Shown: positions 4,471 to 31,473, counted from the first letter of the stretch. The stretch: DNA of 32,000 nucleotides from Nitrososphaerales archaeon (GCA_030041295.1 JASHOD010000038.1:2973-34972), one strand, 5' to 3'. The notes: generated from the sequence alone by a model not told the origin. Numbers and translations: made by a program.

Positions 4471-4488
4471 ATTCTCAAAAATGAGAAT
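4471..4488. promoter_or_regulatory. Perfect palindrome ATTCTCA-AAAA-TGAGAAT upstream of the cydA promoter (candidate operator)
   Basis: 14/14 match to the recurrent motif. A TATA-like 'ttataaat' (4453-4460) lies 10 nt toward cydA (start 4417). Confidence 0.6.
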
Positions 4489-4789
4489 ACAATCAGGGTC
4501 TACGGAGTTCCTCTTTTTCCTTCAAGAATTTCCATTGATGTGATGCATGCAAGCAGAGGTAAAGCGAAAACGCAGCATTACTGATCTCTTTGGATTCCTA
4601 GAACCAGTGACGCAGAGATTCGATTCGGGACAGTATTATTGTTGAACGAAAGAGCCGTTATTGAAGCCAAATCCAAGAAAGCGAATCGAATAAAGAAAAT
4701 TGGTGTCGCATCGACGAGTTAACTTGACTAGATTCAAAGGTCTTGCGAAAAGGCATAAAGCTCCTTCTCCCGACAGACCCTCTACTGGT

Positions 4790-6454
4790 TCAGTGAACGC
4801 CGATTACTTGGCCTTCGCGAGTCAAGTAGATGTCTTCAGCAGCTGGGTGAAGCGGCAGCCCGGGCATCGTCATAATGCTCCCCATGTAAACGACATTGAA
4901 TCCCGCGCCGGCTGCGACGCGGATTTCGTCAACTTTCGTTTTGAAACCACGGGGCCTTCCCAACTTTTGCGGATCATCAGAAAGGGAAGATGGTGTCTTC
5001 GCGATGCAGACTGGAAGTTTGTCAAAGCCGTATTTTTCTATACGGGCAACATCCTTCATCGACGAGGGAGAATACTCTTCTCCAACCCCCCCATAAATCT
5101 TCGTGACTACTTTCTCAATCTTTTCGCGAGTCGTATCTTCGAGCGAATAGAGCGCTTTTGATCTGGATCCTTTCTGCGAGGCTTCAATCGCAAGCATTGC
5201 TAATTCAATAGCTCCTGAGGATCCTAGTTCAAATGCCTCCGAAACGGCGCAAGATACGTTCAGGTTTCTACAAGCTTGTTTCACCATGTTTATGTCGTCT
5301 TGGCTGTCGTCCGGGAACTTGTTGACAGCGACAATCGGGGTTATTCCGAGGAGCTCCATATTTTCAATGTGTTTTGCAAGATTCTCAACGCCCCCAATGA
5401 GCTGCCCGTAATTTTGAGAAAGTAACATGGAGGAACCTGACGTGCTAAAGTAAGTAGAACTCAAAGGCTCAGATGTTTTTGAGTGATATTTTAGCGCTCT
5501 AATTGAAGCCACTATTATTGCACAATCGACGTTGAGTTCTCCGATCCTCGAGACGATATCAACGAATTTCTCTCCTCCGAGGTCGCTTCCAAAACCTGCC
5601 TCGATGACACAATAGTCAGCCAGGCTCAACCCAAGATTTATTGAAACGAGGCTGCAAGTTCCGGTCGCCAAATTTCCGAAGGGGCCTCCGTGAATCAAGG
5701 CCGGTGTTCCCTCGCAGGTCTGTGACAGGTTCGGCAGAAAGGCATCTTTCAAAATCGCTGCCATTGCCCCTGATGCTTTGACATCCGAAGCAGTTATGGG
5801 CTCATCGTTTGAATTAGACCCAATTATTATTCTTCCGAGCTTGTCACTAAGATCAGAATAATTCTTTGAAAGACAAAACGTTGCCATGACCTCTGAAGCC
5901 GCTGTAATCATGAATCTATCCTCTCTCGGAGCCATGTGTTTTTCTTCTGAGAGCCCTACTTTGATCCTTCTCAAGGCACGGTCCTCCATGTCGACTGCTC
6001 TCGTCCAGGAAATCGAGTTTGGATCTATGCAGAGAGAATTTCCGTGGAATATTTGATTATCCACCATGGCGGCGAGCAGGTTGTGCGCTGCGCTGATCGC
6101 GTCAATGTCGCCGGTGAATCGCATGTTGATCTCGGTCGAAGGCTCGACTGTACATTTTCCTCCTCCAGTCGCCCCACCCTTCACGCCAAACAAAGGGCCG
6201 AGCGAAGGCTGCCTGATGATCGAAATGGCTCTATGACCTAATTTATTGAGTGCCATTGACAAGCCTATGGCGGTGACCGTCTTTCCCTCACCATGCGGTG
6301 TCGGGGTCATTGCCGTAACCAATACTACCTTCGCGTTTCGTCGGCGATATCGATCGATTACTTCTAAACCAATCTTTGCGGCGTAATTTCCGTAAGGCTT
6401 CACAGCGCCGAGAGGGATGTCAAGGTCTTTTGCTATTTCAAGGATATTCTTCAT
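4790..6454 (-). CDS. fhs: Formate--tetrahydrofolate ligase
   Basis: 554 aa. 'TPTPHGEGKTVTAIGL' nucleotide-binding loop and full-length colinearity with FTHFS. Its start overlaps the ilvE stop (ATGA at 6451-6454). Confidence 0.93.
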   Translation of the reverse strand: MKNILEIAKDLDIPLGAVKPYGNYAAKIGLEVIDRYRRRNAKVVLVTAMTPTPHGEGKTVTAIGLSMALNKLGHRAISIIRQPSLGPLFGVKGGATGGGKCTVEPSTEINMRFTGDIDAISAAHNLLAAMVDNQIFHGNSLCIDPNSISWTRAVDMEDRALRRIKVGLSEEKHMAPREDRFMITAASEVMATFCLSKNYSDLSDKLGRIIIGSNSNDEPITASDVKASGAMAAILKDAFLPNLSQTCEGTPALIHGGPFGNLATGTCSLVSINLGLSLADYCVIEAGFGSDLGGEKFVDIVSRIGELNVDCAIIVASIRALKYHSKTSEPLSSTYFSTSGSSMLLSQNYGQLIGGVENLAKHIENMELLGITPIVAVNKFPDDSQDDINMVKQACRNLNVSCAVSEAFELGSSGAIELAMLAIEASQKGSRSKALYSLEDTTREKIEKVVTKIYGGVGEEYSPSSMKDVARIEKYGFDKLPVCIAKTPSSLSDDPQKLGRPRGFKTKVDEIRVAAGAGFNVVYMGSIMTMPGLPLHPAAEDIYLTREGQVIGVH

Positions 6455-7392
6455 GCCCTAACTTTCACTTTGCGCTCAAGTACGACATAATCGAGCCAGT
6501 CACGGTACTTCCTGTTGCGACCGTGAATTACATCCGAATACTCTTTTCGTATTTTGTCGGCGTATGGCCATTTGCCGTTTCCGATTCTTCTGCCGTCGAC
6601 TTCTCTGATCGGTGTTATACCGGCAGCTGTTCCCGTGAGCAAGAGTTCGTCGGATGTGTATAGTTCCTCGCGAGATATAGTATTCCTCCTGACCGTCATT
6701 CCATTATCGGTAGCGATCTTGATGACCGTGTCTCTAGTAATGCCTCTCAAAGCTCCATCTGAAGCTGGCGGGGTGCTCAGGATTCCATCCTTCAATCGGA
6801 ATATGTTCTCCCCCGTCCCCTCTGTCACATTGTTGTTCAGATTGAGCATGATTGCTTCGTCATACCCTGCCTTGACGGCCTCGATCTTGGCGAGGCTTCC
6901 ATTGGCGTAATTCGCAGTTGCTTTGGCTTGCGGAGGGAGTATTGCAGAATTGACTCTCTTCCAAGAAGATACTTGGCACTTTACGCCTTTTTCTTCGGCG
7001 TCCTTGCCAAGATAGGTCCCCCATTCCCAAGCGGCAATCGCCACATCCACCCTGTTGGGAAGAGGGTTCACTCCCATCTCGCCATAGCTGTAGTAAGCTA
7101 TCGGTCTAACGTAACACTCTTGCAGGCTGTTCACTTCTACCGTTTCCTTGACAGCGTTTACGATCTCCTTGGGGCTGAAGGGGATGTCCATCATGTAAAT
7201 TTTCGCGCTGTCGTAAAGCCTGCTGATGTGATCATTTAGTCTGAAAACTGCTGAGCCATCCTCGGTACGGAAGCATCTAATTCCTTCAAAAATCGCGGTT
7301 CCGTAATGCAGAGCATGGGTAAGCACATGGATTTTAGCGTCCTCCCACTTGCGAAGCCTACCGTTCATCCAGATCAATTGTGATTGTTGCAT
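6451..7392 (-). CDS. ilvE: Branched-chain amino acid aminotransferase (class IV)
   Basis: 313 aa. The N-terminus 'IWMNGRLRKWEDAKIHVLTHALHYGTAIFEGIRCF' is typical of IlvE. Confidence 0.9.
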   Translation of the reverse strand: MQQSQLIWMNGRLRKWEDAKIHVLTHALHYGTAIFEGIRCFRTEDGSAVFRLNDHISRLYDSAKIYMMDIPFSPKEIVNAVKETVEVNSLQECYVRPIAYYSYGEMGVNPLPNRVDVAIAAWEWGTYLGKDAEEKGVKCQVSSWKRVNSAILPPQAKATANYANGSLAKIEAVKAGYDEAIMLNLNNNVTEGTGENIFRLKDGILSTPPASDGALRGITRDTVIKIATDNGMTVRRNTISREELYTSDELLLTGTAAGITPIREVDGRRIGNGKWPYADKIRKEYSDVIHGRNRKYRDWLDYVVLERKVKVRA

Positions 7393-7442
7393 TTGCCGTC
7401 AAAGTACATTTCCCGCACCATCCGCTTTAAGAGCATACCTTA

Positions 7443-7460
7443 ATTCTCAAGAATGAGAAT
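7443..7460. promoter_or_regulatory. Perfect palindrome ATTCTCA-AGAA-TGAGAAT in the divergent ilvE / hypC intergenic region
   Basis: 14/14 match. TATA-like octamers sit 10 nt away on both sides ('ctttaaga' 7425-7432 and 'tttaagca' 7471-7478). Confidence 0.6.
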
Positions 7461-7567
7461 TGGTAAGAAGTTTAAGCATGCTATCTGATTTGATAATACG
7501 TGAAACAGATAATACTCCAAAAATCGTATAGCTCTTCGAGCAACACGATGGCAGGGGGAACATTACA

Positions 7568-7798
7568 TTGTGCATTACTAGAGTTGGAAAGATAGTTTCG
7601 CTTAAAGAATCAAAGAGTGCGACTGTCAGATTACTCGGCGACGGTAAGATTGTTGAAGACGTCGACGTCTCTATGATTAAAGCCAAGTTAAACTCTTTTG
7701 TCGAAGTTTATGCTAACCTTGCTTTGAGGAAGCTCAGCACTGCAGAGGCGGAAGAGCGAAGTCAAGTCTGGGTAGAAATCATGCGGGCGAGGAATTGA
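7568..7798 (+). CDS. hypC: HypC/HupF-family hydrogenase maturation chaperone-like protein
   Basis: 76 aa with a TTG start, preceded by a GGGGGA ribosome-binding site 8 nt upstream. The N-terminus 'MCITRVGKIV' matches the HypC 'MC(L/I)xxPG' pattern with the essential Cys2. The C-terminus 'FVEVYANLALRKLSTAEAEE' parallels E. coli HypC 'WVLVHVGFAMSVINEAEARD'. Confidence 0.75.
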   Translation: MCITRVGKIVSLKESKSATVRLLGDGKIVEDVDVSMIKAKLNSFVEVYANLALRKLSTAEAEERSQVWVEIMRARN

Positions 7799-7802
7799 TC
7801 TC

Positions 7803-8576
7803 ATGCCATTGGTAGACGCTTCGGGGGCGCTTTTTCACGCAAAACATGCGTTCATGCCTAACAAGCTAGGTTACTGCGGTCCCGACGATAGAGGGATGAT
7901 CCTAGACCGCCTCAGAGAGTCGACGGTCGATGATAGACTTGTCGCAACGCTAAAAAATTTCGAAGCTGCGTACCCCTTCATTCGGCTAATCGGGAAATCC
8001 AATCAAAGAGACCCCTTTGATCTAAAAGTGGCAGATGCCTACTGGATCGGGAACAAACTACTAAGCAACGTATCACCGAAAGCATTTTACAATTTTGCAC
8101 TCGAAGACCTTCGAAAGAAAAACGGAGAAGAGATCCGTTCTTTGTTTCTTGCCTTGCGAGACAAGGCAATCCCTCACCACACTTTCTATGTGATAAGCAC
8201 GACCATGAGTATAATCTCGGATTTTCACCATACGAGCGGAGCCAATCCGAACAAACTCTCTGAAACAATGGATAATTGCAGAATTTCTTGGGGAGAGGCG
8301 ACCAAAATCGAACGTGATCAACTCAAGATTCGCTATCGACCACTTCGCTTCGAAGATGGATGGCTATCTCTGGGCCCAATGAAGACAAAGACTATTGAAT
8401 ACGACAGATCCGTCTCTCCGTTCGATAAGATTGCGGTAGGAGATTACGTCAGCATTCATTGGAATTTTGCATGCGAGATTCTCTCGGAAACACAGCTCAG
8501 AAATATACAAAATTACACAAAGAAGGATATCCAAGCGGTGAACGTCTTCCTGGAAGCAACAAAGCGATCCAAGTAA
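7803..8576 (+). CDS. Unknown His/Cys-rich N-terminal domain fused to a C-terminal HypC-like OB domain
   Basis: 257 aa, starting 4 nt after the hypC-like stop, with a GAGGAA ribosome-binding site. Residues ~157-240 ('DNCRISWGEATKIERDQLKIRY...VGDYVSIHWNFACEILSETQLRN') align by eye with full-length HypC ('MCIGVPGQIRTIDGNQAKVDV...VGQWVLVHVGFAMSVINEAEARD'). The N-terminal domain carries 'HAKHAFMPNKLGYCGPDD', 'IPHHTF' and 'DFHHTSG'. Confidence 0.7.
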   Translation: MPLVDASGALFHAKHAFMPNKLGYCGPDDRGMILDRLRESTVDDRLVATLKNFEAAYPFIRLIGKSNQRDPFDLKVADAYWIGNKLLSNVSPKAFYNFALEDLRKKNGEEIRSLFLALRDKAIPHHTFYVISTTMSIISDFHHTSGANPNKLSETMDNCRISWGEATKIERDQLKIRYRPLRFEDGWLSLGPMKTKTIEYDRSVSPFDKIAVGDYVSIHWNFACEILSETQLRNIQNYTKKDIQAVNVFLEATKRSK

Positions 8577-8625
8577 CAAAGATATTCTCTGTTTCCAAAG
8601 TCGAAAAAAATAGGCGACTAGTTAC

Positions 8626-9891
8626 GTGTCCGAAACTAAAGCTATTCAGATTCGTGGCAAGTTAGGAGCATCGTCATTTTTCCTCTTCGTAATGACGCTG
8701 GGCTACGCAGTTTTCGCTGTAGATCGAAGCGTACTCTCCGCTGTCCTAGTCCCTATGGCACACAGTTTTGGGGCATCAACATCGCAAACACTCTTTCTCC
8801 AGGCGGCGCAGTTTATCGGAGTATTTTGCTTCGTATTCATTGCAGGACACCTTTCAGATAAATTTGGGAAATGGTCAGTTCTGACCGCTGGAGTAATCAT
8901 ATTCACCGTTTTTACCTGGATGATCGGATTTGCAACAAGTTATGCAGAGGCGTTCGTATTCAGGTTGGTCAGTGGTTTCGGAGAAGGTATATTCTGGCCC
9001 GTCGCGATGGCGTGGGTCGCATCGTACTTCGGTTTTCGAAAGGGCCTCGCGCTAGGAATTTTCTATGTGGGTTTTGATATCGGAAGTATAGGAGGACTTT
9101 TCATAGGAGGAGCTTCCTTTGCATTATACAATACATGGCAACCCGCCTTTTTCATTGCTCCGTCGATTGGATTGATTGTACTTGCTGGCGCTCCGTTCCT
9201 AAGACAGAGACTCGGCTCCTCAAATAATGATGACCCTGTCGGAGGAGAGTTTCAGCCTTTTAAGCTCGGGAGAGAAGCAGTTCCTCTGCTAAAGAACAGA
9301 AATGTCGTACTGCTCATGTGTTTTGCTTTCTTCGCAACGTGGGCCTCCCTTTGGCAGAGCGCCTTCCTTCCTCTTTACTTCAATAAGGTCGCACATTTCT
9401 CGATTCCATATGCCGCATTCATGACAATCCCCGTGCTTGCTGCAGGAGCAGTTGGTAAAGTCACGCTCGGGGGGATCTCAGATCGCTCGAGGAGAAATTT
9501 GATGTTGTTTTCAATTTCAATAATTGTTCTCTTTTGTTATGCGATTTTCTTTTTCGTGGACAATTTTGTACTAGATATTGTCGCTGCTCTGGGTATGGGT
9601 TTCTTCAGCGCGGCTTCGTTCCCAATACTTCAAGCACTCGTCGTTGACAGCTGTCGGATAGCGAGGGCGGGTACGGGCTTAGGGCTGACAACATCGGCGC
9701 AGTCACTGGGAGCTATTTTCTCTGTTTCCTTTACGGCGTGGCTATCTTCCTTTGGAGTTAGCAGAACGCTAGCTTTGAACGCAATGGTACCGACCGCGAT
9801 GATAGCGGTCATCGCTATCTTTCTAGTAGAGCCTAGGATGGCAAAGCACAAACAAAGTCAGAATTCAATTGCTCGAGGACGCACGAGATAG
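8626..9891 (+). CDS. MFS transporter (12-TM type)
   Basis: 421 aa with a GTG start. Polytopic, with the MFS motif-A-like 'GHLSDKFGKW'. Confidence 0.8.
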   Translation: MSETKAIQIRGKLGASSFFLFVMTLGYAVFAVDRSVLSAVLVPMAHSFGASTSQTLFLQAAQFIGVFCFVFIAGHLSDKFGKWSVLTAGVIIFTVFTWMIGFATSYAEAFVFRLVSGFGEGIFWPVAMAWVASYFGFRKGLALGIFYVGFDIGSIGGLFIGGASFALYNTWQPAFFIAPSIGLIVLAGAPFLRQRLGSSNNDDPVGGEFQPFKLGREAVPLLKNRNVVLLMCFAFFATWASLWQSAFLPLYFNKVAHFSIPYAAFMTIPVLAAGAVGKVTLGGISDRSRRNLMLFSISIIVLFCYAIFFFVDNFVLDIVAALGMGFFSAASFPILQALVVDSCRIARAGTGLGLTTSAQSLGAIFSVSFTAWLSSFGVSRTLALNAMVPTAMIAVIAIFLVEPRMAKHKQSQNSIARGRTR

Positions 9892-9897
9892 AAGGTA

Positions 9898-10230
9898 TCA
9901 GCCATCAAAGTTCTCGACTCGTTTCTCTCTCTTCAACCTAGCCTCTCTCAATTCTTCTACATTTTTTAGCATAGTGTGAAGAATATTTTCGGTTCCTCTT
10001 GATTCCTGTTCGAGTTCGCCAAGAGCCTTTTTCAATTCCAAATTATCTGATTCGCTGGCAATTTTGCGATAGCTATTTGCGAGGTCCTCTTCCACCGCTA
10101 TCCATTGGAGTACGTTCTCTGCTATTGGATCACAGTAACCCGTTCGTATGGTCTGCTCGACCTTGAGAGCCTGCCCAAGATTTTCGATCTCAACAATTAC
10201 TCTTTCACGAATCAATGAAAAATGTAGCAC
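9898..10230 (-). CDS. Hypothetical all-helical acidic protein
   Basis: 110 aa with a GTG start and a GGAGGT ribosome-binding site 9 nt upstream. Coiled-coil-like C-terminus. No family recognised. Confidence 0.5.
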   Translation of the reverse strand: MLHFSLIRERVIVEIENLGQALKVEQTIRTGYCDPIAENVLQWIAVEEDLANSYRKIASESDNLELKKALGELEQESRGTENILHTMLKNVEELREARLKREKRVENFDG

Positions 10231-10640
10231 CTCTTACTAACCTCCCCAAGACAATTTCCTGCATAAGAGCGTTTCATTCGCCCATTTTTGAGGCATGGAG
10301 ATACTCATGTTATGGATTGTAACGTTCGCGAGTCGAGATTATCCTTGACTCGCTTCGCTGGTATGTGGCTACGGGAACTAATCTTCGTATTTCTGCCCAA
10401 GAAACTATGGAAGGATCATAATCAAAATAGATTTTCTCTGAATAGGGGATTTACGTAGACTCGAAGCACTCCTTCCCACTGTATAAGATTCTTCTAACGT
10501 GCTCCGAATTTGCGAACAAATCTCTTTCGATGACCTTCAATATTCCTGTGAATTTGTTACCAGATTGCTGATTCGAAATTTACCCCTTTCTTCCAATCAA
10601 CTAAATACGAGAGGGCTACTTTGATACTTTAAAGCTCGAG

Positions 10641-10652
10641 CACGATTCTCAA
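10641..10652. promoter_or_regulatory. Perfect motif half-site CACGATTCTCAA; left arm of a 12-bp inverted repeat with 10698-10709
   Basis: ATTCTCA at 10645-10651. The downstream half is degenerate (TCATAAT after a 3-nt spacer). A TATA-like 'ctttaaag' (10627-10634) lies 10 nt to the left. Confidence 0.4.
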
Positions 10653-10687
10653 CATCATAATAAAACAGGAAGTGGATTCGTCTTCTC

Positions 10688-10709
10688 ATTATCGCAATTG
10701 AGAATCGTG
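10688..10709. promoter_or_regulatory. Motif copy ATTATCG-CAAT-TGAGAAT (12/14) upstream of the GNAT gene; includes the right arm TTGAGAATCGTG
   Basis: The gene-proximal half is perfect. T-rich TATA-like 'ttttttac' (10717-10724) lies 11 nt downstream, and the ATG at 10748 is about 27 nt from the TATA centre, which suggests a leaderless mRNA. Confidence 0.5.
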
Positions 10710-10747
10710 TCTTCCCTTTTTTACAAAGGGATTTCCAGACTATCTGT

Positions 10748-19876: not shown

Positions 19877-20001
19877 CCAAACGTCCCCCCTTCGCTACAA
19901 GGGCGTTAAAATCAAAACTCAAAAACTTATTCCGATTTATATCGAGAGGTTGTTCTTCCTTGAATTAGACTTGGCTTTTGGACTTTAAAGAGAATACTCA
20001 G

Positions 20002-20019
20002 ATTCTCATTAGTGATAAT
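20002..20019. promoter_or_regulatory. Motif copy ATTCTCA-TTAG-TGATAAT (13/14) upstream of the hycI-nuo hydrogenase operon
   Basis: TATA-like 'ctttaaag' (19983-19990) lies 11 nt toward the operon. A second TATA-like 'atttatat' sits near 19935-19943. On the other side, 'aaatttat' (20030-20037) lies 10 nt away. Confidence 0.5.
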
Positions 20020-20628: not shown

Positions 20629-20886
20629 CTACTTTAGCTCGTCGGCCCATTTCCCTAAAAGGTCGGTCGGAAACATTCGCAGTGCCTTTCTGCTTTCAAA
20701 ACCAGTTCCCTTCGTTAGGATAAGATCGATGACCTTCTCTCTCTTATCATAAGCCTTTTCGAGCCTGTTCATTATGTCCTTTAGATCGGTCGACTCTTTT
20801 AGAAACACTTCAATGGGTGTATCCCTTTTCAAGTCTTCAATATCGACAAGCATACGCTTTGTCTCAGCTACTTCTTGACTACTCAT
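20629..20886 (-). CDS. Small charged helical protein (85 aa), unknown function; shortened version of the track ORF 20629..21078
   Basis: The internal ATG at 20884-20886 is preceded by an AGGTGA ribosome-binding site, a TATA-like box (20950-20957) and a motif copy (20968-20985). All three would lie inside the longer ORF. Sequence begins MSSQEVAETKRMLVDIEDLKRD... Confidence 0.55.
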   Translation of the reverse strand: MSSQEVAETKRMLVDIEDLKRDTPIEVFLKESTDLKDIMNRLEKAYDKREKVIDLILTKGTGFESRKALRMFPTDLLGKWADELK

Positions 20887-20967
20887 TTTGACTCTCACCT
20901 TGCCTGCGGCGATCAAGCATGCGCGCATGATCGCCTGAGCGAGAGATCGATAAAAATCCCGCACTCG

Positions 20968-20985
20968 ATTCTCTATTTTGAGAAT
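20968..20985. promoter_or_regulatory. Motif copy ATTCTCT-ATTT-TGAGAAT (13/14) upstream of the 85-aa ORF
   Basis: GATTCTC...GAGAATC arms are perfect. TATA-like 'ataaaaat' (20950-20957) lies 10 nt toward the gene. Confidence 0.55.
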
Positions 20986-21013: not shown

Positions 21014-21379
21014 CTACAGTTGTTGGGAGTTATCGAAGTTGTCAGCAATGGTTTCGGGCTCGAGTTCATCGATAGCATCCACGAGCGGTTTCAGATGACC
21101 TAACACTGGACCGCCGTGCATAAGTACCGCCATTAATCCAGCTTCTATGGTTTCCTCTCTTGTTGCACCTGCGGAAGCCGCGGCCTGAACATGAAATGCA
21201 ATGCACCCATTCGCACTGTGCTGCTACTCCGAGAGCGATATTGATCAGGTCTTTGAACTTGCTGGTAAGGGCAGGACCCTCCTCGGCTTTTCGCATAAAG
21301 TTCATGAAGGCAAGAGTTTCATCAGGATACTCTGCAATCGTTTTACAAGAGCTTCAAACTCTTGCAAGCGATCCTTCAT
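21014..21379 (-). pseudogene. Carboxymuconolactone decarboxylase / AhpD-like (CMD family) gene disrupted by two frameshifts
   Basis: Three frame segments read 'MKDRLQEFEALVKRLQ' | 'EYPDETLAFMNFMRKAEEGPALTSKFKDLINIALGVAAQCEW' | 'CIAFHVQAAASAGATREETIEAGLMAVLMHGGPVLGHLKPLVDAIDEL...'. Joined, they give a canonical CMD protein with the CxxC..H motif. The shifts are at about 21330-21334 (one G missing) and 21206-21208 (one extra G in 'tggg'). Confidence 0.75.
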
Positions 21380-21463
21380 ATGGCCCTGTACGTTTTTCCG
21401 TTGTTTGCAACTATTACACCAAGTGATAGCTCCTCGTTTTTGGAGATTTAAGTACCGTACTTA

Positions 21464-21481
21464 ATTCTCAACTGTCATAAT
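21464..21481. promoter_or_regulatory. Motif copy ATTCTCA-ACTG-TCATAAT (12/14) upstream of the CMD pseudogene
   Basis: The gene-proximal half is perfect. TATA-like 'atttaagt' (21446-21453) lies 10 nt toward the gene. Confidence 0.45.
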
Positions 21482-21665: not shown

Positions 21666-22853
21666 GTGATATTCGACCTGTCAGATACCTTGAGCCAACT
21701 TGAGACTGAAGACTCGGAAATAAAGAAAAAGGAAGAGAGCGTAATCTCTTCAGAGTCAACAAGGAAAATCGTCACGTCATCGACTGGCTCTGATACCGCT
21801 GATCCCAAGGTCGCAAAGAAAGACAAATCTCAATCTCTAGATTTTCGAGGTTTTGTCTCTTCCCATCACCTAGCGTTTTCTCTAGCGTTTACTGTTCTCT
21901 TGCTAATTGGCGGAGTTATACTACTCCTATCGTCATTGTCTAGTGTATTTCCTCATAGGGGGATTCCGAGCATTTTTGGTATATCGCTCCCTCAAGAGAT
22001 TGGAATTGTTTTTGCTGCCATTGGAATCCTGTTTTTGATAAGTCCATCATTTTTCAACAGATTCGTGTTCGATGCCCTAAATTATGAAAGAGACCTCAGA
22101 ATTCGGGCGCAAAAATCTACTCGCGAAGCTCAGCTTCTTCAAGATATACTTACGCATGACGTTCGAAATTACAATCAGGTTTCAAAATTGAGCGCGGAAC
22201 TTTTGGCCGAGGAGTTCAAGAATAATGCCAATGCGCAAGAGCTTGTCGACCGCCTCTTGGAGTCAATAGACGGCTCCACTCTTCTGGTTCAGCGTGCGAA
22301 GATGCTCGGGAAAGTAATTTCTGATCAGTCGCTCAATCAGCACCCGGTAAATGTTCTCTCCAGCATAAAACGTTCGATGAACCTGACTACAACTTCAACT
22401 CCCGGGAAGACAATTACCACAGTAGTCAAATTGGGTTCAAATGCAATTGCCCCACTTGACAAATTGGACCCAGAGGCAGAACCTGTAGACGTTATGGCAG
22501 ATGATTTGATCGACGAAGTCTTTGCTAACTTGTTTTCAAACTCGGTCAAGTATTCTAAGGACGGAGAAGATGCTTTTGTTGGGATTGAGATTCAAAGGGA
22601 ACTCGTGAAGGATCTTAAGAACAAGGACTGCTGGAGAATCGCAATCTCAGATACTGGCAAGGGAATTCCCGACGAGTTGAAACCCGCCCTTTTCTCAAGA
22701 TGCTTGGATGGCGCAAAAGGAAGTGGCCTCGGCTTGTCAATAGTTCACGCTCTTGTTGTGGGTCGCTATGAGGGCAAGATTCAAGTCGAAAATAGGAACG
22801 ATAGAGATCATTCAGAAGGAACCGTCGTGGAGCTGTTCCTTCCCGCGGCTTAA
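21666..22853 (+). CDS. Membrane-anchored sensor histidine kinase (no cognate response regulator adjacent)
   Basis: 395 aa with a GTG start. Two TM helices separated by a ~16-aa loop. H-box 'LTHDVRNYNQV', N-box 'FANLFSNSVKYS', G1 'DTGKGIP', G2 'GSGLGLSIV'. Confidence 0.85.
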   Translation: MIFDLSDTLSQLETEDSEIKKKEESVISSESTRKIVTSSTGSDTADPKVAKKDKSQSLDFRGFVSSHHLAFSLAFTVLLLIGGVILLLSSLSSVFPHRGIPSIFGISLPQEIGIVFAAIGILFLISPSFFNRFVFDALNYERDLRIRAQKSTREAQLLQDILTHDVRNYNQVSKLSAELLAEEFKNNANAQELVDRLLESIDGSTLLVQRAKMLGKVISDQSLNQHPVNVLSSIKRSMNLTTTSTPGKTITTVVKLGSNAIAPLDKLDPEAEPVDVMADDLIDEVFANLFSNSVKYSKDGEDAFVGIEIQRELVKDLKNKDCWRIAISDTGKGIPDELKPALFSRCLDGAKGSGLGLSIVHALVVGRYEGKIQVENRNDRDHSEGTVVELFLPAA

Positions 22854-23737: not shown

Positions 23738-23743
23738 TACTTT

Positions 23744-25092: not shown

Positions 25093-26623
25093 TTTGGCCC
25101 CCGATCGCTTTTGGAATTTCCTCGTTGTTATCGGCGTTAGTTGTCTCCACTGAAAATTCGCTTTTCGCTTTCTTACCCATTACTTCCTGGCCCAGAAGCG
25201 ATAGGACCAACCCGACTACGAAGGAGGCTGCCGCGACATAGTATGTATATTGAAATGCCGCTGTAGTCGGAGGATGGAGAACTTGTCCTTTGAAAACCAG
25301 AGTAAGCGTGAAAGTGGACAAGATGGACGCAGCTATAGGTGCTCCCAGGCTCTGCCCTACGTTACGAAATACAGTGTTGGTCGCCGTTACAAGGCCCATC
25401 TCCCGCGGTTTCACAGAAAGGACAAGCAGATTCTGCATAGATACCATCATCATCGCGAGGCCGACGGATGCGATGGCGAGGTACCCTGCTATCTCAAGAG
25501 CTGAATGCGTTTCTGCGAGTAAAAGAAAACCGATAGCTCCAATTATACTGCCAACAATTAGGAACGGCTTGACTCCAATTCGCGAGATAAGAATTCCGAG
25601 CGGATAAGCGAGGGCGAGCATCACGATTGCCAGTGGAAGCAAATATAGCCCTGTCGTAAAAATGTCAAAACCATAACCAACTGGCTTTGAATCTTCCAGC
25701 TGAAAAACTATGGATTGAAACGCCAATAGCATTCCCATTCCGGAGATTAACCCAAGCACGTTCGAAACCAAGACGTTTCTTTGGCGAAGCTGAGCGAAAT
25801 TCAACACGGCTACTTCCTTCAATTTCATTTCGTAAGGTACCAATGGGATGAATAGCATGAGGCCAACGACGATAAGTCCAAGGACTGGCGCAGACGTCCA
25901 GCCCCAGTATGAGCCTTGGGACAACCCTAGCACCACTAGCGCGACTGCAACTCCTAAGAGTCCCGCACCAACATAGTCCATCTTTGCTTCGGGGTTTCTA
26001 AAGGGAGATTCCCTGACTGCGAAGAAAATCAAAACTGTTAGTACAATAATGAATGGCGTTGCGATATGATAGTTGGTCTGCCAACCATAGTTGTTTGCGA
26101 CAAACGCTCCTACTGGAAGTCCGAGTGCCAAACCTGCGCCGAACATGGCGCTCACAAGTCCCTGCGCTCTTGGGACTAACTGACGCGGAAACTGTTCCCT
26201 GACTAGACTGAAGGCAAGAGGGAAGATTCCCAGTCCTACTCCTTGGAAGGTTCTCGAAATTACGAGAACAGTAAAGTTAGGGGCAAACGAGGTGATCGTA
26301 ACCATTATTGAATAAGAGACTAAAACGTACATCAGAACCTGTTTCTTTCCATAGATGTCGCCCAATTTTCCTACTATTGGATTAATGGCTGTTCCAAAAA
26401 CGGTGTATAAGGAAAGAATCAGACTTACCTGTCCGATAGTTACGTTGTACTGTTTTTCAATCGAAGGTAGAGATGGTGTGAGCATTATTTCGATGTACAT
26501 CACTGAGGCAGCAAGAAGGGCGAAGAGTATGAGATTCCGATTGGCGTAAGCCAGATCAAACTGCTGCAGATTTTGTTTTTGGCCCTGAGATGATGCCGCG
26601 GGTTTCATTTGATTTTCTTCCAT
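25070..26623 (-). CDS. MFS drug/H+ antiporter-like transporter (14-TM DHA2 type)
   Basis: 517 aa with ~14 hydrophobic helices. Motif-A-like 'VGKLGDIYGKKQV'. First gene of the MFS-PadR-ABC cluster. Confidence 0.85.
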   Translation of the reverse strand: MEENQMKPAASSQGQKQNLQQFDLAYANRNLILFALLAASVMYIEIMLTPSLPSIEKQYNVTIGQVSLILSLYTVFGTAINPIVGKLGDIYGKKQVLMYVLVSYSIMVTITSFAPNFTVLVISRTFQGVGLGIFPLAFSLVREQFPRQLVPRAQGLVSAMFGAGLALGLPVGAFVANNYGWQTNYHIATPFIIVLTVLIFFAVRESPFRNPEAKMDYVGAGLLGVAVALVVLGLSQGSYWGWTSAPVLGLIVVGLMLFIPLVPYEMKLKEVAVLNFAQLRQRNVLVSNVLGLISGMGMLLAFQSIVFQLEDSKPVGYGFDIFTTGLYLLPLAIVMLALAYPLGILISRIGVKPFLIVGSIIGAIGFLLLAETHSALEIAGYLAIASVGLAMMMVSMQNLLVLSVKPREMGLVTATNTVFRNVGQSLGAPIAASILSTFTLTLVFKGQVLHPPTTAAFQYTYYVAAASFVVGLVLSLLGQEVMGKKAKSEFSVETTNADNNEEIPKAIGGQNDSEAKS

Positions 26624-26786
26624 GATATATCGAATCTCCCATTATGATAAAGTCCTGTACGCTACTTCTCGTAAGAAGTCAGTTTAGTTACAGGAAATGA
26701 ATTATTGGTTATCCAATAAATCTAGTTTTAAATGTTGTCATCTAAGGACAAAAAAAGTTGGTCAAGGATCCCCTTGAGGGATTCGA

Positions 26787-27116
26787 TCACTGTCTTGCGC
26801 GTGAATCTTGCGAGGGAATATGTTCTGCTTCTCCGTCAGAATCCAAACTTTCGAAAAGCCCTTGGTTTATCGTCCACCTGTAAAGTCGAAAGCTCCACAA
26901 GACCAGCTTCTTGTCAAGGATATTGCCCAGCGCGTAAAAAACAAGAATCATTGAAGAACAGAGGAGAAGATTCGCCGTGGCAATATATTGTTCAGATTGA
27001 AAAGCGATGATCAATGCATTGACAGACGCTATTACGATACTCGCAAGCAAAATTCTGAGCACGTACGGGAAGCTGTTCGTTGTGCTCTCGGTCTTTCGTT
27101 GCGCCGTATCACTCAA
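26787..27116 (-). CDS. Small membrane protein (2 TM), unknown function
   Basis: 109 aa with a TTG start. Preceded by a TATA-like box (27161-27168) and a motif copy (27178-27195). Confidence 0.45.
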   Translation of the reverse strand: MSDTAQRKTESTTNSFPYVLRILLASIVIASVNALIIAFQSEQYIATANLLLCSSMILVFYALGNILDKKLVLWSFRLYRWTINQGLFESLDSDGEAEHIPSQDSRARQ

Positions 27117-27177
27117 AGACGCTCGCTTAACCCCTACATGACACTGATACGCGATCCGTTCAATTAAAGCAAGTGTC

Positions 27178-27195
27178 GATTCTCAAAACTGGGAA
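27178..27195. promoter_or_regulatory. Motif copy ATTCTCA-AAAC-TGGGAAT (13/14), flanked by CG...CG
   Basis: TATA-like 'aattaaag' (27161-27168) lies 9 nt toward the 109-aa ORF. Confidence 0.55.
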
Positions 27196-27244
27196 TCGGA
27201 TTCATGTAAAAATTGTGCGGGGGGAGAATTTTTGTTGAAATTTT

Positions 27245-27730
27245 CTATCTGACAGTTACTTTGTGAGTTTTCATTTCGGTTGGATTTTTCTTTGGAACGA
27301 TAACTTCCAAGACACCGTCTTTTACCTGCGCGTCAGCCTTTTCTGGAATAACTTCTTCAGGAAATGCAAGCTCCCGTCTGACCTTCGACCAAGTCCTCTC
27401 TTTGTGAACATAACCCTCATTTTCTTCGTCTATTGTCTTTTCAGCTTCCCCTTCGATTTTTATTCCTCTTGAATTGACAGATATGTTCAGTTTCTCCTTT
27501 GGTATCCCTGGGACTTCCGCGTGAACGCGGTATTCCTTTCCCGTATCAATGAGGTCGGCGAATGCTCGCCTTGTTTCAGGAAATTCGAATGATCTCCACC
27601 ATCTCGGTCCAAGCCACCCTCCTGGAGACAATCCTGGCCAGCCGAATGGGCGATTGAAACTAGGAAGATTTTCTTCATTCCTTCTCACTGCGAGCTCAGT
27701 ATTCCTTTTCGACTTTCTCTTTTGCGGCAA
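27245..27730 (-). CDS. hsp20: Hsp20 / alpha-crystallin family small heat-shock protein
   Basis: 161 aa with a TTG start and an AGGA ribosome-binding site. Alpha-crystallin domain 'YRVHAEVPGIPKEKLNISV...ADAQVKDGVLEVIVPKK'. Confidence 0.9.
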   Translation of the reverse strand: MPQKRKSKRNTELAVRRNEENLPSFNRPFGWPGLSPGGWLGPRWWRSFEFPETRRAFADLIDTGKEYRVHAEVPGIPKEKLNISVNSRGIKIEGEAEKTIDEENEGYVHKERTWSKVRRELAFPEEVIPEKADAQVKDGVLEVIVPKKNPTEMKTHKVTVR

Positions 27731-27791
27731 AATAGATCATCCTTTTACCAATATCTCGAGAGCTCTTCCTACCTAATTTCTTTTTCTCCCA

Positions 27792-27809
27792 ATTCTCAAG
27801 CGTGAGAAT
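27792..27809. promoter_or_regulatory. Perfect palindrome ATTCTCA-AGCG-TGAGAAT between the divergent hsp20 and nfeD-like genes
   Basis: 14/14 match. A/T-rich boxes lie about 10 nt away on both sides ('taatttct' 27774-27781 and 'tttattat' ~27819-27826). Confidence 0.6.
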
Positions 27810-27938
27810 CGACTTTTAGTTTATTATTTTGATTTGCGTAAAAAATAACTGAAGCAAGCAAAAAATTGCGTAGTTTCGGACTGATAATGAAAATAACCGA
27901 ATTAGAACGAGTTAAGACCGAAGGTAGGAAGCCCAAAA

Positions 27939-28235
27939 ATGATTAATCCGTATGTTACAGCTCTGGAAGTTGCCATTGCGATAATCATCGCAATCTTCGC
28001 TTGGTATGCAATCTCCCTTTTTAGAAAAAAGCCAGTTACAGGATCAGAATCTTTGATTGATGCGAAAGGCGTCGTTCATAGCGACGAGCTTGCCCCAGAC
28101 GGCGAGGTTAGCATAAACGGCGTGATATGGAGGGCCCATCTTGTAGATCCGACAGGTGGCCAACTCAAGAAGGGCGACCCGATTATAGTTAGAAAAATCG
28201 AGGAGCTTACTCTCATGGTAGAAAAGAGCCCATGA
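27939..28235 (+). CDS. Short NfeD-like protein (N-terminal TM plus C-terminal OB-fold)
   Basis: 98 aa. A single TM, then 'PDGEVSINGVIWRAHLVDP...KKGDPIIVRKIEELTLMVEK', typical of the NfeD C-terminal domain. No SPFH/stomatin partner gene is adjacent. Confidence 0.7.
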   Translation: MINPYVTALEVAIAIIIAIFAWYAISLFRKKPVTGSESLIDAKGVVHSDELAPDGEVSINGVIWRAHLVDPTGGQLKKGDPIIVRKIEELTLMVEKSP

Positions 28236-28247
28236 GCTCTAAGATCT

Positions 28248-28733
28248 TCATCTTACTACTAACACATTGCAATGGGCGTGGGCAACAACCCCGCTAGAGA
28301 CACTGCCAAGTAGCAGTCTCTTGAACCCTCCGAGGCCTCGCGTTCCAATCACTATAAGATCAACTTTGTTACTTACTGCAGCACCAATTATTTCCTCGAC
28401 TATGGATTTGTCAGCGCGGATAATACTGCTCGTCAATTTGGAGATTCCTTCTTTCCTGGCATGAATTATGGCTTCGTCCACGAAGCGACGTGCAGAATTT
28501 TCTTGCTGTTCATAGTATGTTTCCACTCCTGAAGCAGGCGCTCCGAATGCAGATGTCGTAATGAGGACATTAGGAGTTGAGATCACATTCAGTACCACAA
28601 GTTCCGAGCCGGAAATCTTTGCCAATCCGATTGCAACATCCAAAGCTCTCGAAGCATTGGAAGAACCATCGATAGGAACAAGCATCTTCGAAGGAAAATT
28701 AGAAACAGAATTTGCATTTATTTTCTTGCTCAT
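28248..28733 (-). CDS. Universal stress protein (UspA family); start revised from the track ORF 28248..28853
   Basis: 'KMLVPIDGSSNASRAL' ... 'DLIVIGTRGLGGFKRLLLGSVSSGVVAHAHCNVLVV'. The ATG at 28731-28733 (MSKKINAN...) lies about 12 nt downstream of the TSS predicted from the TATA-like 'acttaaat' (28767-28774). The longer form would contain its own promoter. Confidence 0.8.
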   Translation of the reverse strand: MSKKINANSVSNFPSKMLVPIDGSSNASRALDVAIGLAKISGSELVVLNVISTPNVLITTSAFGAPASGVETYYEQQENSARRFVDEAIIHARKEGISKLTSSIIRADKSIVEEIIGAAVSNKVDLIVIGTRGLGGFKRLLLGSVSSGVVAHAHCNVLVVR

Positions 28734-28784
28734 GGATTGTTCTAAGTTAAAAATTGGTTCGCTCTTACTTAAATCAGTTGCATG

Positions 28785-28802
28785 TTTCTCAGAAATAAGA
28801 AC
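28785..28802. promoter_or_regulatory. Degenerate motif copy TTTCTCA-GAAA-TAAGAAC (11/14) upstream of usp
   Basis: Same geometry as the strong copies: the TATA-like box at 28767-28774 lies exactly 10 nt toward the gene. Confidence 0.3.
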
Positions 28803-28896
28803 AATAATCTTCAACACAAAGTAATCTTGTTCAGAAAGCGAGGAACTTAGCATGAAACGTCAATATAGCAATAATTGAGGATAGGGATAATCGAGA

Positions 28897-30294
28897 TTGA
28901 GTAATAGCAAGAACAGAGACTCATTGGACTTCTTCTTCAACCCAGCGAGCGTTGCGATCATTGGGGCATCAAAGACCCCGGGAAAAATAGGTCACGAACT
29001 ACTCAGGAATTTGACCCAATCTGGATTTGGCGGGAAGATATTTCCGGTAAATCCCAAAGCCGGTAAGATTCTAGGGTACATTTGTTACAAGAGTATCGTC
29101 GATGTCCCTTCTCCCGTGGATCTCGGTATAGTAGTTGTACCGGCAGATTTGGTAGAAGGCGTAACTCGCGATTGTGTTACAAAGCAAGTGAAAGGAATCA
29201 TAATAATTACATCAGGGTTCTCCGAAGTCGGTAACAAAGAACTCGAGGAAAGAATTGTAGAAATAGCAAGAGGCAAGCTTCGAATAGTCGGACCCAACAC
29301 ATTTGGAATTTACTACGCTGGTACTAAAATGAACGCCACGTTCGGCCCGACAAAGGTTCTCGAGGGGCACACGGCATTCATCACCCAGTCAGGAGCTCTC
29401 GGTCTTGCCCTAATGGACTGGACCACCGAAGAGAAATACGGTGTATCTGCAATCGTCAGCATCGGGAACAAGTCAGATGTCGACGACGCAGACTTGATAG
29501 AGTATTTCTCTAGTGACTCTCTGACAAGATCGATTTTGATATATATGGAGGGGCTGAAAGGCGGAAGAAAATTCTACGAAATTTCGAAAAGCGCAACCAG
29601 AAAGAAACCAATCGTAGTCATAAAGGCTGGACGGTCCAAGAGGGGTGCCCAAGCTGCTTCCTCGCATACAGGCTCTATCGCAGGACAAGATACGGTCTTC
29701 TCGGCAGCTTTTGAACAAGCTGGAATAATGCGAGCCGAGGGCATGACTCAGGCATTTGATTGGATACAAGCGATTAACGAGAATCCCGTACCAAAAGGAG
29801 AGAATTTGGCGATAGTTACAAACGGTGGAGGAGTTGGAGTGCTTGCGACAGATAAATGCGAAGCCCTGGGCTTGAAACTAACGGACATTTCTACAAATTT
29901 GGCAGATGATCTGAAACAGATCATGCCCAGTTTCGGATCTGTAAAAAATCCGATCGATATTACTGCAAATGCAGATGACGTTCTATACGCAAAAGTTCTT
30001 GATGTCTTATTTCGAAGTGAGGACGTTGATTCGATTATAGCGTTATTCTGCCAGACAGCGAACATTGATCCCGTGCTATTTGCCCAAGCTATCATTTCCT
30101 TGCGTAACAAAGAGAATTTCAAAAAGCCATTGACATGCGCATTTATAGGCGGTCATTTATCTCAGATTGCTTATTCGACAATGCTAGAAGGACAATTTGC
30201 CGCCTATCCTACGGCAGAGCGCGCGGTCGATTCGATGTACGCTCTAACAACAAGATATAGACAATTGAGTCGGTGGAAAGCGGAAGAGGTTTGA
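28897..30294 (+). CDS. acdA: ADP-forming acetyl-CoA synthetase, alpha subunit
   Basis: 465 aa with a TTG start. 'FFNPASVAIIGASKTPGKIG' (CoA-binding Rossmann fold) and the phosphohistidine loop 'ASSHTGSIAG'. Confidence 0.9.
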   Translation: MSNSKNRDSLDFFFNPASVAIIGASKTPGKIGHELLRNLTQSGFGGKIFPVNPKAGKILGYICYKSIVDVPSPVDLGIVVVPADLVEGVTRDCVTKQVKGIIIITSGFSEVGNKELEERIVEIARGKLRIVGPNTFGIYYAGTKMNATFGPTKVLEGHTAFITQSGALGLALMDWTTEEKYGVSAIVSIGNKSDVDDADLIEYFSSDSLTRSILIYMEGLKGGRKFYEISKSATRKKPIVVIKAGRSKRGAQAASSHTGSIAGQDTVFSAAFEQAGIMRAEGMTQAFDWIQAINENPVPKGENLAIVTNGGGVGVLATDKCEALGLKLTDISTNLADDLKQIMPSFGSVKNPIDITANADDVLYAKVLDVLFRSEDVDSIIALFCQTANIDPVLFAQAIISLRNKENFKKPLTCAFIGGHLSQIAYSTMLEGQFAAYPTAERAVDSMYALTTRYRQLSRWKAEEV

Positions 30295-30300
30295 AGGACG

Positions 30301-31047
30301 ATGAGGAAAGAGAGCGAACAATCTAAGACAAGCAAGTTGATAGCCGACGCTTTTGGCTCGGGAAGAAAATCTCTCCTAGAGCATGAAGCCGAATTGGTTG
30401 CGAGAGAATATGGAATAAAGGAGCCAGCGTCTAAGCTGGCTACAAATGAAGAACAAGCTCTCTCTTTTGCAAAGCGAGTTGGCTATCCCCTAGTCATGAA
30501 AATTGTCTCGCAGGATATTTTACACAAGTCTGACGTGGGCGGTGTCAAGACCGACATATCATCTCAAAAATTAGTAAGGCCTACTTTCAAAGAGATTTTG
30601 AGAAATGCAAAGAAATCGAATCCTAAAGCGAGAATAGGTGGCATTCTGATTCAAAGACAGGCGGAGAAAAGTTACGAATTTGTAGTAGGAGCTACACGCG
30701 ATCCACAATTTGGACCAACGATAATGTTTGGTCTAGGCGGCATTTACGTTGAACTCTTCAAGGATGTGGCCTTCCGATTGGCGCCAGTTAGCCGGGAAGA
30801 AGCCCTTGACATGATAAAAGAGACAAGATCATACAAACTCTTAACTGGATTTAGAGGGTCTAAACCACTTGATACAAATGCAGTAGTTGACACGATAAGA
30901 GCGGTGGGTGAGTTGATGGTCCGTGAACCGCACGTAGAATCCTTGGACATCAATCCGTTGTTTGTGTATCCGAAAGGTGCTTTGGCAGTTGATGTAAGAA
31001 TAATTTTGGAACAGAAAGTTCCGCTTTTGCAACCAGCTAAAGCCTGA
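30301..31047 (+). CDS. acdB: ADP-forming acetyl-CoA synthetase, beta subunit (ATP-grasp)
   Basis: 248 aa. 'LLEHEAELVAREYGI' and 'YPLVMKIVSQDILHKSDVGGV'. Starts 6 nt after acdA. Confidence 0.9.
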   Translation: MRKESEQSKTSKLIADAFGSGRKSLLEHEAELVAREYGIKEPASKLATNEEQALSFAKRVGYPLVMKIVSQDILHKSDVGGVKTDISSQKLVRPTFKEILRNAKKSNPKARIGGILIQRQAEKSYEFVVGATRDPQFGPTIMFGLGGIYVELFKDVAFRLAPVSREEALDMIKETRSYKLLTGFRGSKPLDTNAVVDTIRAVGELMVREPHVESLDINPLFVYPKGALAVDVRIILEQKVPLLQPAKA

Positions 31048-31068
31048 GAAGTTGTGAAAAGTAATTTT

Positions 31069-31446
31069 TCATGATTGGGACGAAATTGAGAGCGCGAACA
31101 TCTTACTCGGGGCTGCTCTGAGTTCCTCCGGATTGGTTCGCCTAGGCACGGAAGCGCTGAGAATAATTCCAATAATCAAAATAATTGCGCCTATTACTAC
31201 GATTTTCACGTCGTTTGCCATGACTAGATTATAATTTGGGCAAAGACTAGAAGGATTTGGCTCGCACCTAGTCATGGCGTAAGACGATACAAAATAAGAG
31301 AGCGTCCCGAAACCTCCGATAACGGCTCCAGAACCGATGAGCAGGAACACTACAAATAGCTTCATTGCATTATCCAGGGCAACCACCTTCTTAGACAAAC
31401 ATTTGTTGCCTTCATTAACTAATTTGATGGGCGAGATATTTAACAT
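31069..31446 (-). CDS. Small membrane protein (2 TM), unknown function; the true start may be the internal Met at 31365
   Basis: 125-aa ORF. A strong TATA-like 'atatttaa' (31435-31442) lies inside the 5' end of the long form. 'MKLFVVFLLIGSGAV...' looks like a natural N-terminus. Confidence 0.4.
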   Translation of the reverse strand: MLNISPIKLVNEGNKCLSKKVVALDNAMKLFVVFLLIGSGAVIGGFGTLSYFVSSYAMTRCEPNPSSLCPNYNLVMANDVKIVVIGAIILIIGIILSASVPRRTNPEELRAAPSKMFALSISSQS

Positions 31447-31455
31447 CGAGATACG

Positions 31456-31473
31456 ATTATCAATTGTGATATT
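31456..31473. promoter_or_regulatory. Degenerate motif copy ATTATCA-ATTG-TGATATT (11/14) between the 125-aa ORF and adh
   Basis: The palindromic character is retained. A/T-rich boxes lie on both sides (31435-31442 and ~31483-31490). Confidence 0.3.

Follow-up and report, generated by a model that had tools for sequence, protein, structure and literature searches.

The 32,000-nucleotide (nt) stretch of Nitrososphaerales archaeon DNA whose first lines are shown above (GCA_030041295.1, JASHOD010000038.1:2973-34972; the whole stretch is called the window below) raises the question why one and the same palindrome, ATTCTCA-N4-TGAGAAT, stands in front of genes for cytochrome bd, hydrogenases and stress proteins. 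In an initial annotation it was proposed to mark an undescribed stress or redox regulon, with the site abutting the transcription factor B (TFB) recognition element (BRE) and the TATA box. The geometry of the sites, their conservation and the recurring gene families behind them uphold this proposal, whereas the stimulus is deduced from gene content. We consider it likely, at a probability of about 0.85, that a regulator binds the palindrome and that the sites define a regulon, and with moderate confidence we predict that it acts in activation.

A palindrome at a fixed distance from the core promoter

The window was searched for the palindrome at up to three mismatches, using 100 dinucleotide shuffles as a control. 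This gave 14 matches where 3.09 ± 1.70 were expected, and none of the 100 shuffles reached 14. Ten of the matches are the sites of Table 1; the other four (starting at 22552, 23858, 23909 and 25731, each with three mismatches) lie inside histidine kinase, ABC and MFS genes, are without a neighbouring TATA-like box, and agree in number with the chance expectation. A weight matrix that was trained solely on sites of other loci and applied at a cut-off of at least 12 bits picks the same ten sites and no other place in the window, while shuffled windows contain a mean of 0.47 matches at this cut-off. Since an independent matrix recovers precisely those ten, the list of sites is both correct and complete. 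The excess over chance that had been claimed earlier is thus borne out by the shuffle as well as by the matrix test. With corrected start codons, every one of the ten sites falls between genes, as the initial annotation had it, and the motif is not equally frequent inside genes.

Some details of the earlier description had to be revised. Nine of its ten site coordinates were recovered by the mismatch search, but the site placed at 27178 starts at 27179. A lone perfect half-site that had been listed at 10645-10651 is at chance level, as three extra copies of each 7-mer are present in the window. The statement that the half-site facing the gene is the better conserved one holds within the window, but not in 56 oriented sites elsewhere, where the count is 17 against 19. 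The gene names given earlier were confirmed by Pfam, which recognized cytochrome bd subunit I, formate-tetrahydrofolate ligase, a class IV aminotransferase, HypC, a GNAT acetyltransferase, HycI, a Nuo-like group 4 hydrogenase operon, Hsp20, NfeD, Usp, an ADP-forming acetyl-CoA synthetase and PadR. The TATA-like octamers are also found at the positions given earlier, at 8-12 nt from the palindrome edge that faces the nearest gene.

The palindrome is part of a larger, directional arrangement. The consensus of 77 oriented sites from all loci reads ATTCTCA a..t TGAGAAT CGT.T ...... TTTATAT, in which the CGT extension is confined to the TATA side (C in 70%, G in 76% and T in 68% of the sites that were not selected for CGT). 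An A/T-rich box (at least 7 of 8 positions) starts 8-12 nt past the palindrome in 68 of the 69 sites that carry one, so the fixed promoter spacing that had been claimed is held within ±2 bp. Between CGT and TATA no bases are conserved (the top base reaches 28-40%), including the 6 nt at the expected BRE position, and the strength of a BRE is not readable from sequence in Nitrososphaerota. The palindrome never overlaps the TATA box and never lies downstream of it, and some sites are common to divergent promoters. In most of 91 site-gene pairs the start codon follows 40-65 nt past the palindrome. The centre of an archaeal TATA box lies about 26-27 nt before the transcription start; with this spacing the palindrome would span roughly positions -59 to -42, with its centre near -50, and most site-bearing mRNAs would be leaderless or have short leaders. 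The distance between the half-sites is one helical turn, as would suit a dimeric helix-turn-helix protein.

Table 1 Palindromes and associated promoter elements in the window, followed by the second palindrome of other loci (+n, distance in nt from palindrome edge to start codon, with corrected starts; ORF, open reading frame; aa, amino acids; bits, weight-matrix score)
Feature	Position	Strand of gene	Gene or operon	Promoter elements and distances
Palindrome 14/14 (ATTCTCAAAAATGAGAAT)	4471-4488	minus	cydA-cydB-membrane protein operon	CGT proximal flank; start codon 4417 (+53)
TATA-like box of cydA promoter	4453-4460	minus	cydA	
Palindrome 14/14	7443-7460	both	common to divergent ilvE-like/fhs and hypC-DUF6390-MFS promoters	
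ilvE-like/fhs promoter		minus	ilvE-like/fhs	TATA 7425-7432; ATG 7392 (+50)
hypC-DUF6390-MFS promoter		plus	hypC-DUF6390-MFS	TATA-like 7469-7476; start 7568 (+107)
Palindrome 12/14	10688-10705	plus	GNAT acetyltransferase	CGT flank; TATA 10717-10724; ATG 10748 (+42); 28.4 bits
Palindrome 13/14	20002-20019	minus	hycI / group 4 hydrogenase (Nuo-like) operon, 19876-11299	TATA 19983-19990; first start +125
Palindrome 13/14	20968-20985	minus	85/99-aa protein gene, 20629-20928	TATA 20950-20957; ATG +39
Palindrome 12/14	21464-21481	minus	frameshifted CMD/AhpD-like gene	TATA 21446-21453; ATG 21379 (+84)
Palindrome 13/14	27179-27196	minus	109-aa membrane ORF, 26787-27116	TATA 27161-27168; +62
Palindrome 14/14	27792-27809	both	between hsp20 (minus) and nfeD (plus)	
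hsp20	27245-27730	minus	hsp20	TATA-like 27774-27781; +61
nfeD	27939-28235	plus	nfeD	TATA 27820-27827; +129
Degenerate palindrome 11/14	28785-28802	minus	usp	TATA 28767-28774; ATG 28733 (+51); 14.7 bits
Variant palindrome 11/14 (ATTATCA-type half-sites)	31456-31473		125-aa membrane ORF (minus), possibly also adh (plus)	CGT flank; 24.8 bits
125-aa membrane ORF		minus	125-aa membrane ORF	TATA 31437-31444; ATG 31415 (+40)
adh		plus	adh, continues past window end	ATG 31538 (+64)
CCTAA-N4-TTAGG	L052:2559-2672, 3412			
CCTAA-N4-TTAGG	L120/L121/L122: about 5834-5993			
CCTAA-N4-TTAGG	L124:5903, 9688			
CCTAA-N4-TTAGG	L011:2483, 4198, 5799			

Some entries of Table 1 depend on gene starts or gene integrity. 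The start of usp was set by alignment with two relatives, and the 85-aa ORF of the earlier description is called here as 99 aa, starting at 20928. The CMD/AhpD-like pseudogene noted before (21066-21379, minus strand) indeed carries a frameshift, caused by a 1-nt insertion relative to an intact 119-aa gene in a related locus (L002, 9554-9913); its promoter elements are nevertheless conserved. The palindrome is separated from the earliest possible start codon of hycI by 125 nt (19877-20001). This gap is unlike the short-leader pattern at most sites, which implies that the hydrogenase operon has a leader of about 85 nt or is preceded by an unrecognised small ORF.

Recurrence of the element in Nitrososphaerota

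Closely and more distantly related loci contain the same arrangement. Locus L002 shows synteny and 83-84% DNA identity with the window, and L003 and L004 are more distant; at up to two mismatches they contain four, nine and six sites, respectively, and the order is always palindrome, CG(T), TATA, gene. Between the window and L003, the cydA promoter can be aligned solely from the palindrome through CGT to the TATA box. The promoters of the usp, 109-aa and 85-aa genes are conserved among L002-L004 and L245, and the site of the 109-aa ORF is kept in L002, where it is perfect, and in L245. Hsp20 genes of two further loci, L016 and L169, also carry the palindrome. Thus, as expected of an operator, the palindrome is enriched at promoters and conserved upstream of orthologous genes. 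At the usp gene some turnover of the site can be followed: it matches at 13 of 14 positions in L245 (3489-3506), at 11 of 14 in the window, and is further decayed in L002 (around position 2155).

A scan of a genome collection for the palindrome followed by CG returned at least 115 stretches, and among those listed about 25 are metagenome-assembled genomes (MAGs) assigned to Nitrososphaerales, Nitrososphaeraceae, Thaumarchaeota or Nitrososphaerota, with 36-66% GC. Additional sites are roughly tenfold more frequent in the Nitrososphaerota loci than in the other loci among the matches listed: in 177 kb the former contain three further perfect sites, nine with one mismatch and 14 with two, whereas 86 other loci contain, in 620 kb, no perfect site, three with one mismatch and six with two. 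The same division is seen in the promoter context of the perfect CG matches listed. An A/T-rich octamer at +8 to +13 on the CG side accompanies 27 of 30 matches in Nitrososphaerota and 13 of 95 in other organisms, and a T directly follows the CG in 23 of 30 and 15 of 95, respectively. A metagenome scan with the composite pattern yielded 120 more stretches, including loci of 33-34% GC whose Cys-rich 82-aa protein is annotated as Candidatus Nitrosopelagicus. The composite architecture recurs across Nitrososphaerota whose genomes range from 33% to 66% GC, Nitrososphaeraceae and Ca. Nitrosopelagicus among them. An exact look-up of the formate-tetrahydrofolate ligase of the window gave no match. 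The window itself belongs to this phylum, as all named homologues of its acetyl-CoA synthetase alpha subunit at 58% identity or more are from Nitrososphaerales, Thaumarchaeota or Nitrososphaerota, with Thermoprotei at only about 50%; its content of cytochrome bd and a group 4 hydrogenase suggests a non-ammonia-oxidising lineage.

These comparisons also bear on the explanation that the palindrome has no regulatory role and is instead a small mobile repeat, the hairpin of a terminator or a sequence that recurs by chance, to which we assign hardly any weight. The sequence is able to form a 7-bp hairpin, and ten of the 120 metagenome matches truly are a bacterial terminator, in which the stem is extended to CCG...CGG and followed by a T-run. 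At the archaeal loci, however, the T-run is lacking, and the palindrome lies upstream of the inferred transcription start. Copies of a mobile repeat would be expected to share extended flanks, but the flanks are unrelated and the copies have nothing in common other than the CGT and TATA elements; the sole repeat family that touches the sites is a 25-nt block from TATA to half-site, at 72-76% identity. Chance is countered by the very large excess over shuffles, and by orthologous promoters that hold the site though their flanks diverge. For the archaeal sites this explanation is refuted.

A related issue is whether the palindrome is read as RNA or as DNA. The half-site variants ATTCTCA and ATTATCA combine freely (29 mixed sites), and such mixed sites disrupt hairpin pairing. 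A search for correlated changes in the two half-sites, as a sign of hairpin covariation, gave no clear excess once the seed sites were set aside, and an Rfam scan of the window gave no match. Since the variants mix freely and Rfam gave no match, recognition of DNA rather than an RNA structure is indicated.

The bacterial terminators form a class of their own, CCGATTCTCAG...CTGAGAATCGG followed by a T-run, found in loci L150, L152, L170, L182, L197, L204, L222, L226, L242 and L244, which represent one population that was sampled repeatedly. In these ten loci the terminator precedes a sigma-70-type promoter and a gene for a membrane-anchored protein of 143-147 aa. Such chance matches would contaminate naive counts of the palindrome.

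Mode of action and resemblance to known systems

If the palindrome is a binding site, a dimeric sequence-specific transcription factor, conserved throughout Nitrososphaerota, may be expected to bind it. The palindrome would then be one half of a composite promoter, the remainder consisting of CGT, about 8 nt without a conserved BRE, the TATA box, and about 25 nt to the transcription start. With its centre near -50, the site would be directly upstream of the position of TFB, and the bound dimer could contact TFB and the TATA-binding protein (TBP) and stabilise them on promoters that have no good BRE of their own. A location upstream of the BRE, the lack of a conserved BRE and a spacing held within ±2 bp are as expected of an activator that contacts TFB/TBP. 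The symmetry of the site would allow one dimer to drive two divergent promoters, which we infer from the dyad symmetry together with the shared sites. The regulon would be large, partly clustered in islands, and would include secondary regulators of the HTH_10, PadR, Lrp and ArsR-like types.

The same position may also be compatible with repression, by a dimer that sits just upstream of the BRE and hinders TFB or bends the DNA until a signal releases it. Operation of the site by such a global repressor is unlikely in our view, although most characterised archaeal regulators are repressors, the CGT flank comes within a few bases of where the BRE would be, and derepression is the classic control of stress genes like hsp20 and usp. 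The distances to the start codon also vary, with +64 for adh and values up to +130 for others. However, known archaeal repressor sites overlap the TATA box, the BRE or the start and need no rigid spacing, whereas the palindrome is never found over the TATA box and its spacing is constant within ±2 bp across the phylum. Furthermore, a promoter without a recognisable BRE would seem to need help more than blocking.

It can also be envisaged that the element is a promoter-class determinant that is read by, or together with, one TFB paralogue, in which case it would be the counterpart of a stress promoter recognized by an alternative sigma factor. We regard this as quite improbable. TFB is a monomer on DNA and covers about 6 bp beside the TATA box, whereas a 7-4-7 dyad is the signature of a dimeric helix-turn-helix protein, and the stretch between dyad and TATA box is long enough for a normal BRE. 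None of the sites was seen to be linked to a TFB gene. On the other hand, the element is abundant in motif-linked loci, always joined to the core promoter at a fixed distance, and its CGT extension is asymmetric, being present on the TATA side only. An ample set of candidate paralogues is also available, as Thaumarchaeota encode 8-11 TFBs (PMC4084955).

Several observations weigh against the proposal of one activator-driven regulon. Site density is very uneven: of two relatives that were picked via a non-target gene, acetyl-CoA synthetase, L245 has three sites in 21 kb and L246 has none in 21 kb. This difference indicates that the sites are clustered and that the window is an unusually dense island, and the size of the regulon is overestimated when it is derived from loci that were selected by the motif. 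The genes form a broad set that extends to surface proteins, metal uptake and catabolic enzymes, and a hypoxia or redox signal is weakly grounded in it. The transcription starts used here are placed from the spacing of TATA boxes and start codons. The sole transcription factor gene that always bears the site, encoding the HTH_10 protein discussed below, is associated with a palindrome of its own and is not universal in the phylum.

The archaeal activators most similar in arrangement are Ptr2 and TFB-RF1. Ptr2 of Methanocaldococcus jannaschii reportedly is an activator with a site upstream of BRE/TATA that recruits TFB or TBP. TFB-RF1 (PF1088) of Pyrococcus furiosus is reported to be an activator that binds upstream of BRE/TATA at targets with a weak BRE and recruits TFB or TBP (PMC5937170). 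The palindrome described here is likewise located upstream of, and adjacent to, BRE/TATA, directly upstream of the core promoter, and recruitment is the mechanism that we propose. TFB-RF1 and Ptr2 act at one or a few promoters in Euryarchaeota and recognize unrelated sites, whereas the present element occurs phylum-wide at many promoters with a spacing held within ±2 bp.

Palindromic sites are also recognized by the dimeric winged-helix regulators SurR, TrmB/TrmBL1 and Phr of Thermococcales, and with SurR and TrmBL1 a site upstream of the TATA box activates while one downstream represses. Their operators are GTTn3AAC for SurR, TATCAC-N5-GTGATA for the Thermococcales glycolytic motif (TGM) of TrmB, and an A/T-rich site for Phr. 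Compared with these consensus sequences, the palindrome has different half-sites and spacing, and it occurs in a different phylum; its variant form TATCA-N4-TGATA differs in spacing by 3 bp from the TGM. In the initial annotation, too, the palindrome was not recognised as any of these sites.

Outside the archaea, the logic is reminiscent of bacterial CRP and FNR, which in class I and class II activation use dyad sites with a short fixed spacer (TTGAT-N4-ATCAA for FNR) at discrete upstream distances, activate through contact between proteins, and govern large oxygen and energy regulons. The likeness is one of logic only: bacterial sigma-70 RNA polymerase stands against archaeal TBP/TFB, the sequences are unrelated, and no CRP/FNR protein is implicated. 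In gene content, and in that respect only, the set resembles the mycobacterial DosR/DevR regulon, which comprises multiple Usp proteins, alpha-crystallin/Hsp20, a CBS protein, a ferredoxin and a hydrogenase and responds to hypoxia. DosR, a response regulator of the LuxR type, binds a 20-bp palindrome that differs from the present one, and the regulon described here also holds copper, iron and surface proteins.

To our knowledge, no transcription factor regulon has been experimentally defined in Nitrososphaerota, a phylum that includes the ammonia-oxidising archaea driving much of global nitrification. Searches of the literature brought up no description of the palindrome, although motifs given only in figures or in subscription journals escape such searches. 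The only promoter motifs that we found reported for the phylum are those related to copper limitation in Nitrososphaera viennensis, TTCSGSMTTTGWACYANT and RATTTAAABATAGATTTAAATAATAAS (PMC7785015). These are also located at -35 to -70 from start codons and share some gene classes with the present set (multicopper oxidases, ArsR), but they differ from the palindrome in sequence.

Upstream regulatory sites are known in archaea as a kind; what is notable here is the breadth and the rigid architecture. If the placement beside the core promoter reflects activation, it would be a rare natural system in which the archaeal, eukaryote-like mode of activation can be studied at many promoters. An 18-bp site that is so sharply defined in genomes from 33% to 66% GC is usable as bait for isolating the regulator. 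It also allows prediction of co-regulated genes in uncultured genomes such as MAGs, and could serve as a metatranscriptome marker for the stress state of Nitrososphaerota in the environment. A bolder view, which we offer tentatively and consider well below an even chance, is that the composite element represents a phylum-wide master programme for stress or low oxygen, in which one ancient activator, possibly with a dedicated TFB paralogue, would stand above the secondary HTH_10, PadR, Lrp and ArsR-like regulators. If true, this would be the archaeal counterpart of bacterial general stress and dormancy regulons, present also in globally abundant ammonia oxidisers.

Target genes and candidate regulators

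To describe the regulon, the first ORFs downstream of sites were clustered and then annotated. Families that recur are Usp, response regulators, Hsp20 and CBS-domain proteins; cytochrome bd, a small ferredoxin and FAD-binding oxidoreductases; serine-rich surface proteins, cupredoxin/COX2-like proteins and a VKOR/His-Cys-rich family; and two kinds of regulator, namely a PadR with a histidine-rich tail and the HTH_10 protein. The response regulators consist of the receiver domain alone in Pfam. Seen in one or a few loci are the NiFe hydrogenase small subunit, DUF6390 (which comes after hypC in the window), hemerythrin, a molybdopterin oxidoreductase, a multicopper oxidase, the FTR1 iron permease, a CobW-like GTPase, a metal ABC transporter, and Lrp and ArsR-like regulators. 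The theme of the set is stress, oxygen and redox, and metal handling, from which the signal could be hypoxia, redox or energy stress. In loci that were picked via a regulon member, 23 of 82 promoters (intergenic regions of at least 45 nt) carry a site with at most three mismatches within 100 nt of the start; a genome may be guessed to have from dozens to slightly more than a hundred sites.

The proteins that had been suggested as regulators in the initial annotation, the local PadR and the 85-aa protein, find no support. The promoter of the operon of the window PadR has no site, and this protein was treated as a local regulator. The 85-aa protein has only 12 homologues, and its structural model is a long helical hairpin (pLDDT 86); comparison of the model with the PDB gave no fold match, and in particular none to a DNA-binding fold. 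It is a conserved target instead, as the palindrome is present at the promoter of its gene in all four lineages (window, L002, L003 and L004). This protein of 85-99 aa is restricted to the lineage (homologues P0001-P0012) and has an invariant GxGFES..ALRMFPT motif. In L003 and L004 its gene is followed by a Usp gene.

The most consistent regulator target is the HTH_10 gene, which has a site in L052 and in all four further orthologues that were fetched. The site is 44-50 nt before the start, and it persists in orthologues with as little as 38% protein identity and over a GC range of 43-66%. The HTH_10 gene has a second palindrome, CCTAA-N4-TTAGG, downstream of its TATA box and ahead of its start codon (Table 1). 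This second palindrome is confined to the HTH_10 loci and L011, with two to three perfect copies in each, and none in the window or in L002-L004. It probably is the operator of HTH_10 itself, for a local regulon of copper proteins. The HTH_10 family comprises 47 clusters only; in view of this number and of the second palindrome, HTH_10 was rejected as master regulator and is considered a second-tier regulator of the copper-protein cluster. The second palindrome also adjoins a divergent neighbour with a V4R domain and nearby cupredoxin and multicopper oxidase genes, and one promoter in L011 bears both palindromes.

Three other types of protein were considered as binder. A small ArsR-like winged-helix family is present in 13 motif-retrieved loci, with a site upstream of one member, which amounts to co-location only, and an Lrp gene has a site in L171 only; both were set aside. 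A CBS-only protein is only an idea, by analogy to HhpR, which is a CBS-only protein acting as an archaeal activator (PMC11705074). It stays so because HhpR recognizes A/T-rich DNA.

The PadR with the histidine-rich N-terminal tail (HEHHHHHDDHEHGHEHEHH) was found at L107:4973-5515, L225:816-1346 and L153:7334-7858, always with a perfect palindrome at +49. Its gene faces that of a small Cys/His-rich protein family, a member of which also precedes a metal ABC transporter in L003. The combination of the two families hints at a metal-sensing branch of the regulon.

A stress island of a marine ammonia oxidiser is present in L175 (4079-9260), a Ca. Nitrosopelagicus-like locus of 34% GC that has four palindromes within 3 kb. 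Its genes encode Hsp20, Usp, a cupredoxin, two small zinc-ribbon/Cys-rich proteins, an ArsR-like winged-helix protein, a CopG-like protein and a MEDS-domain protein.

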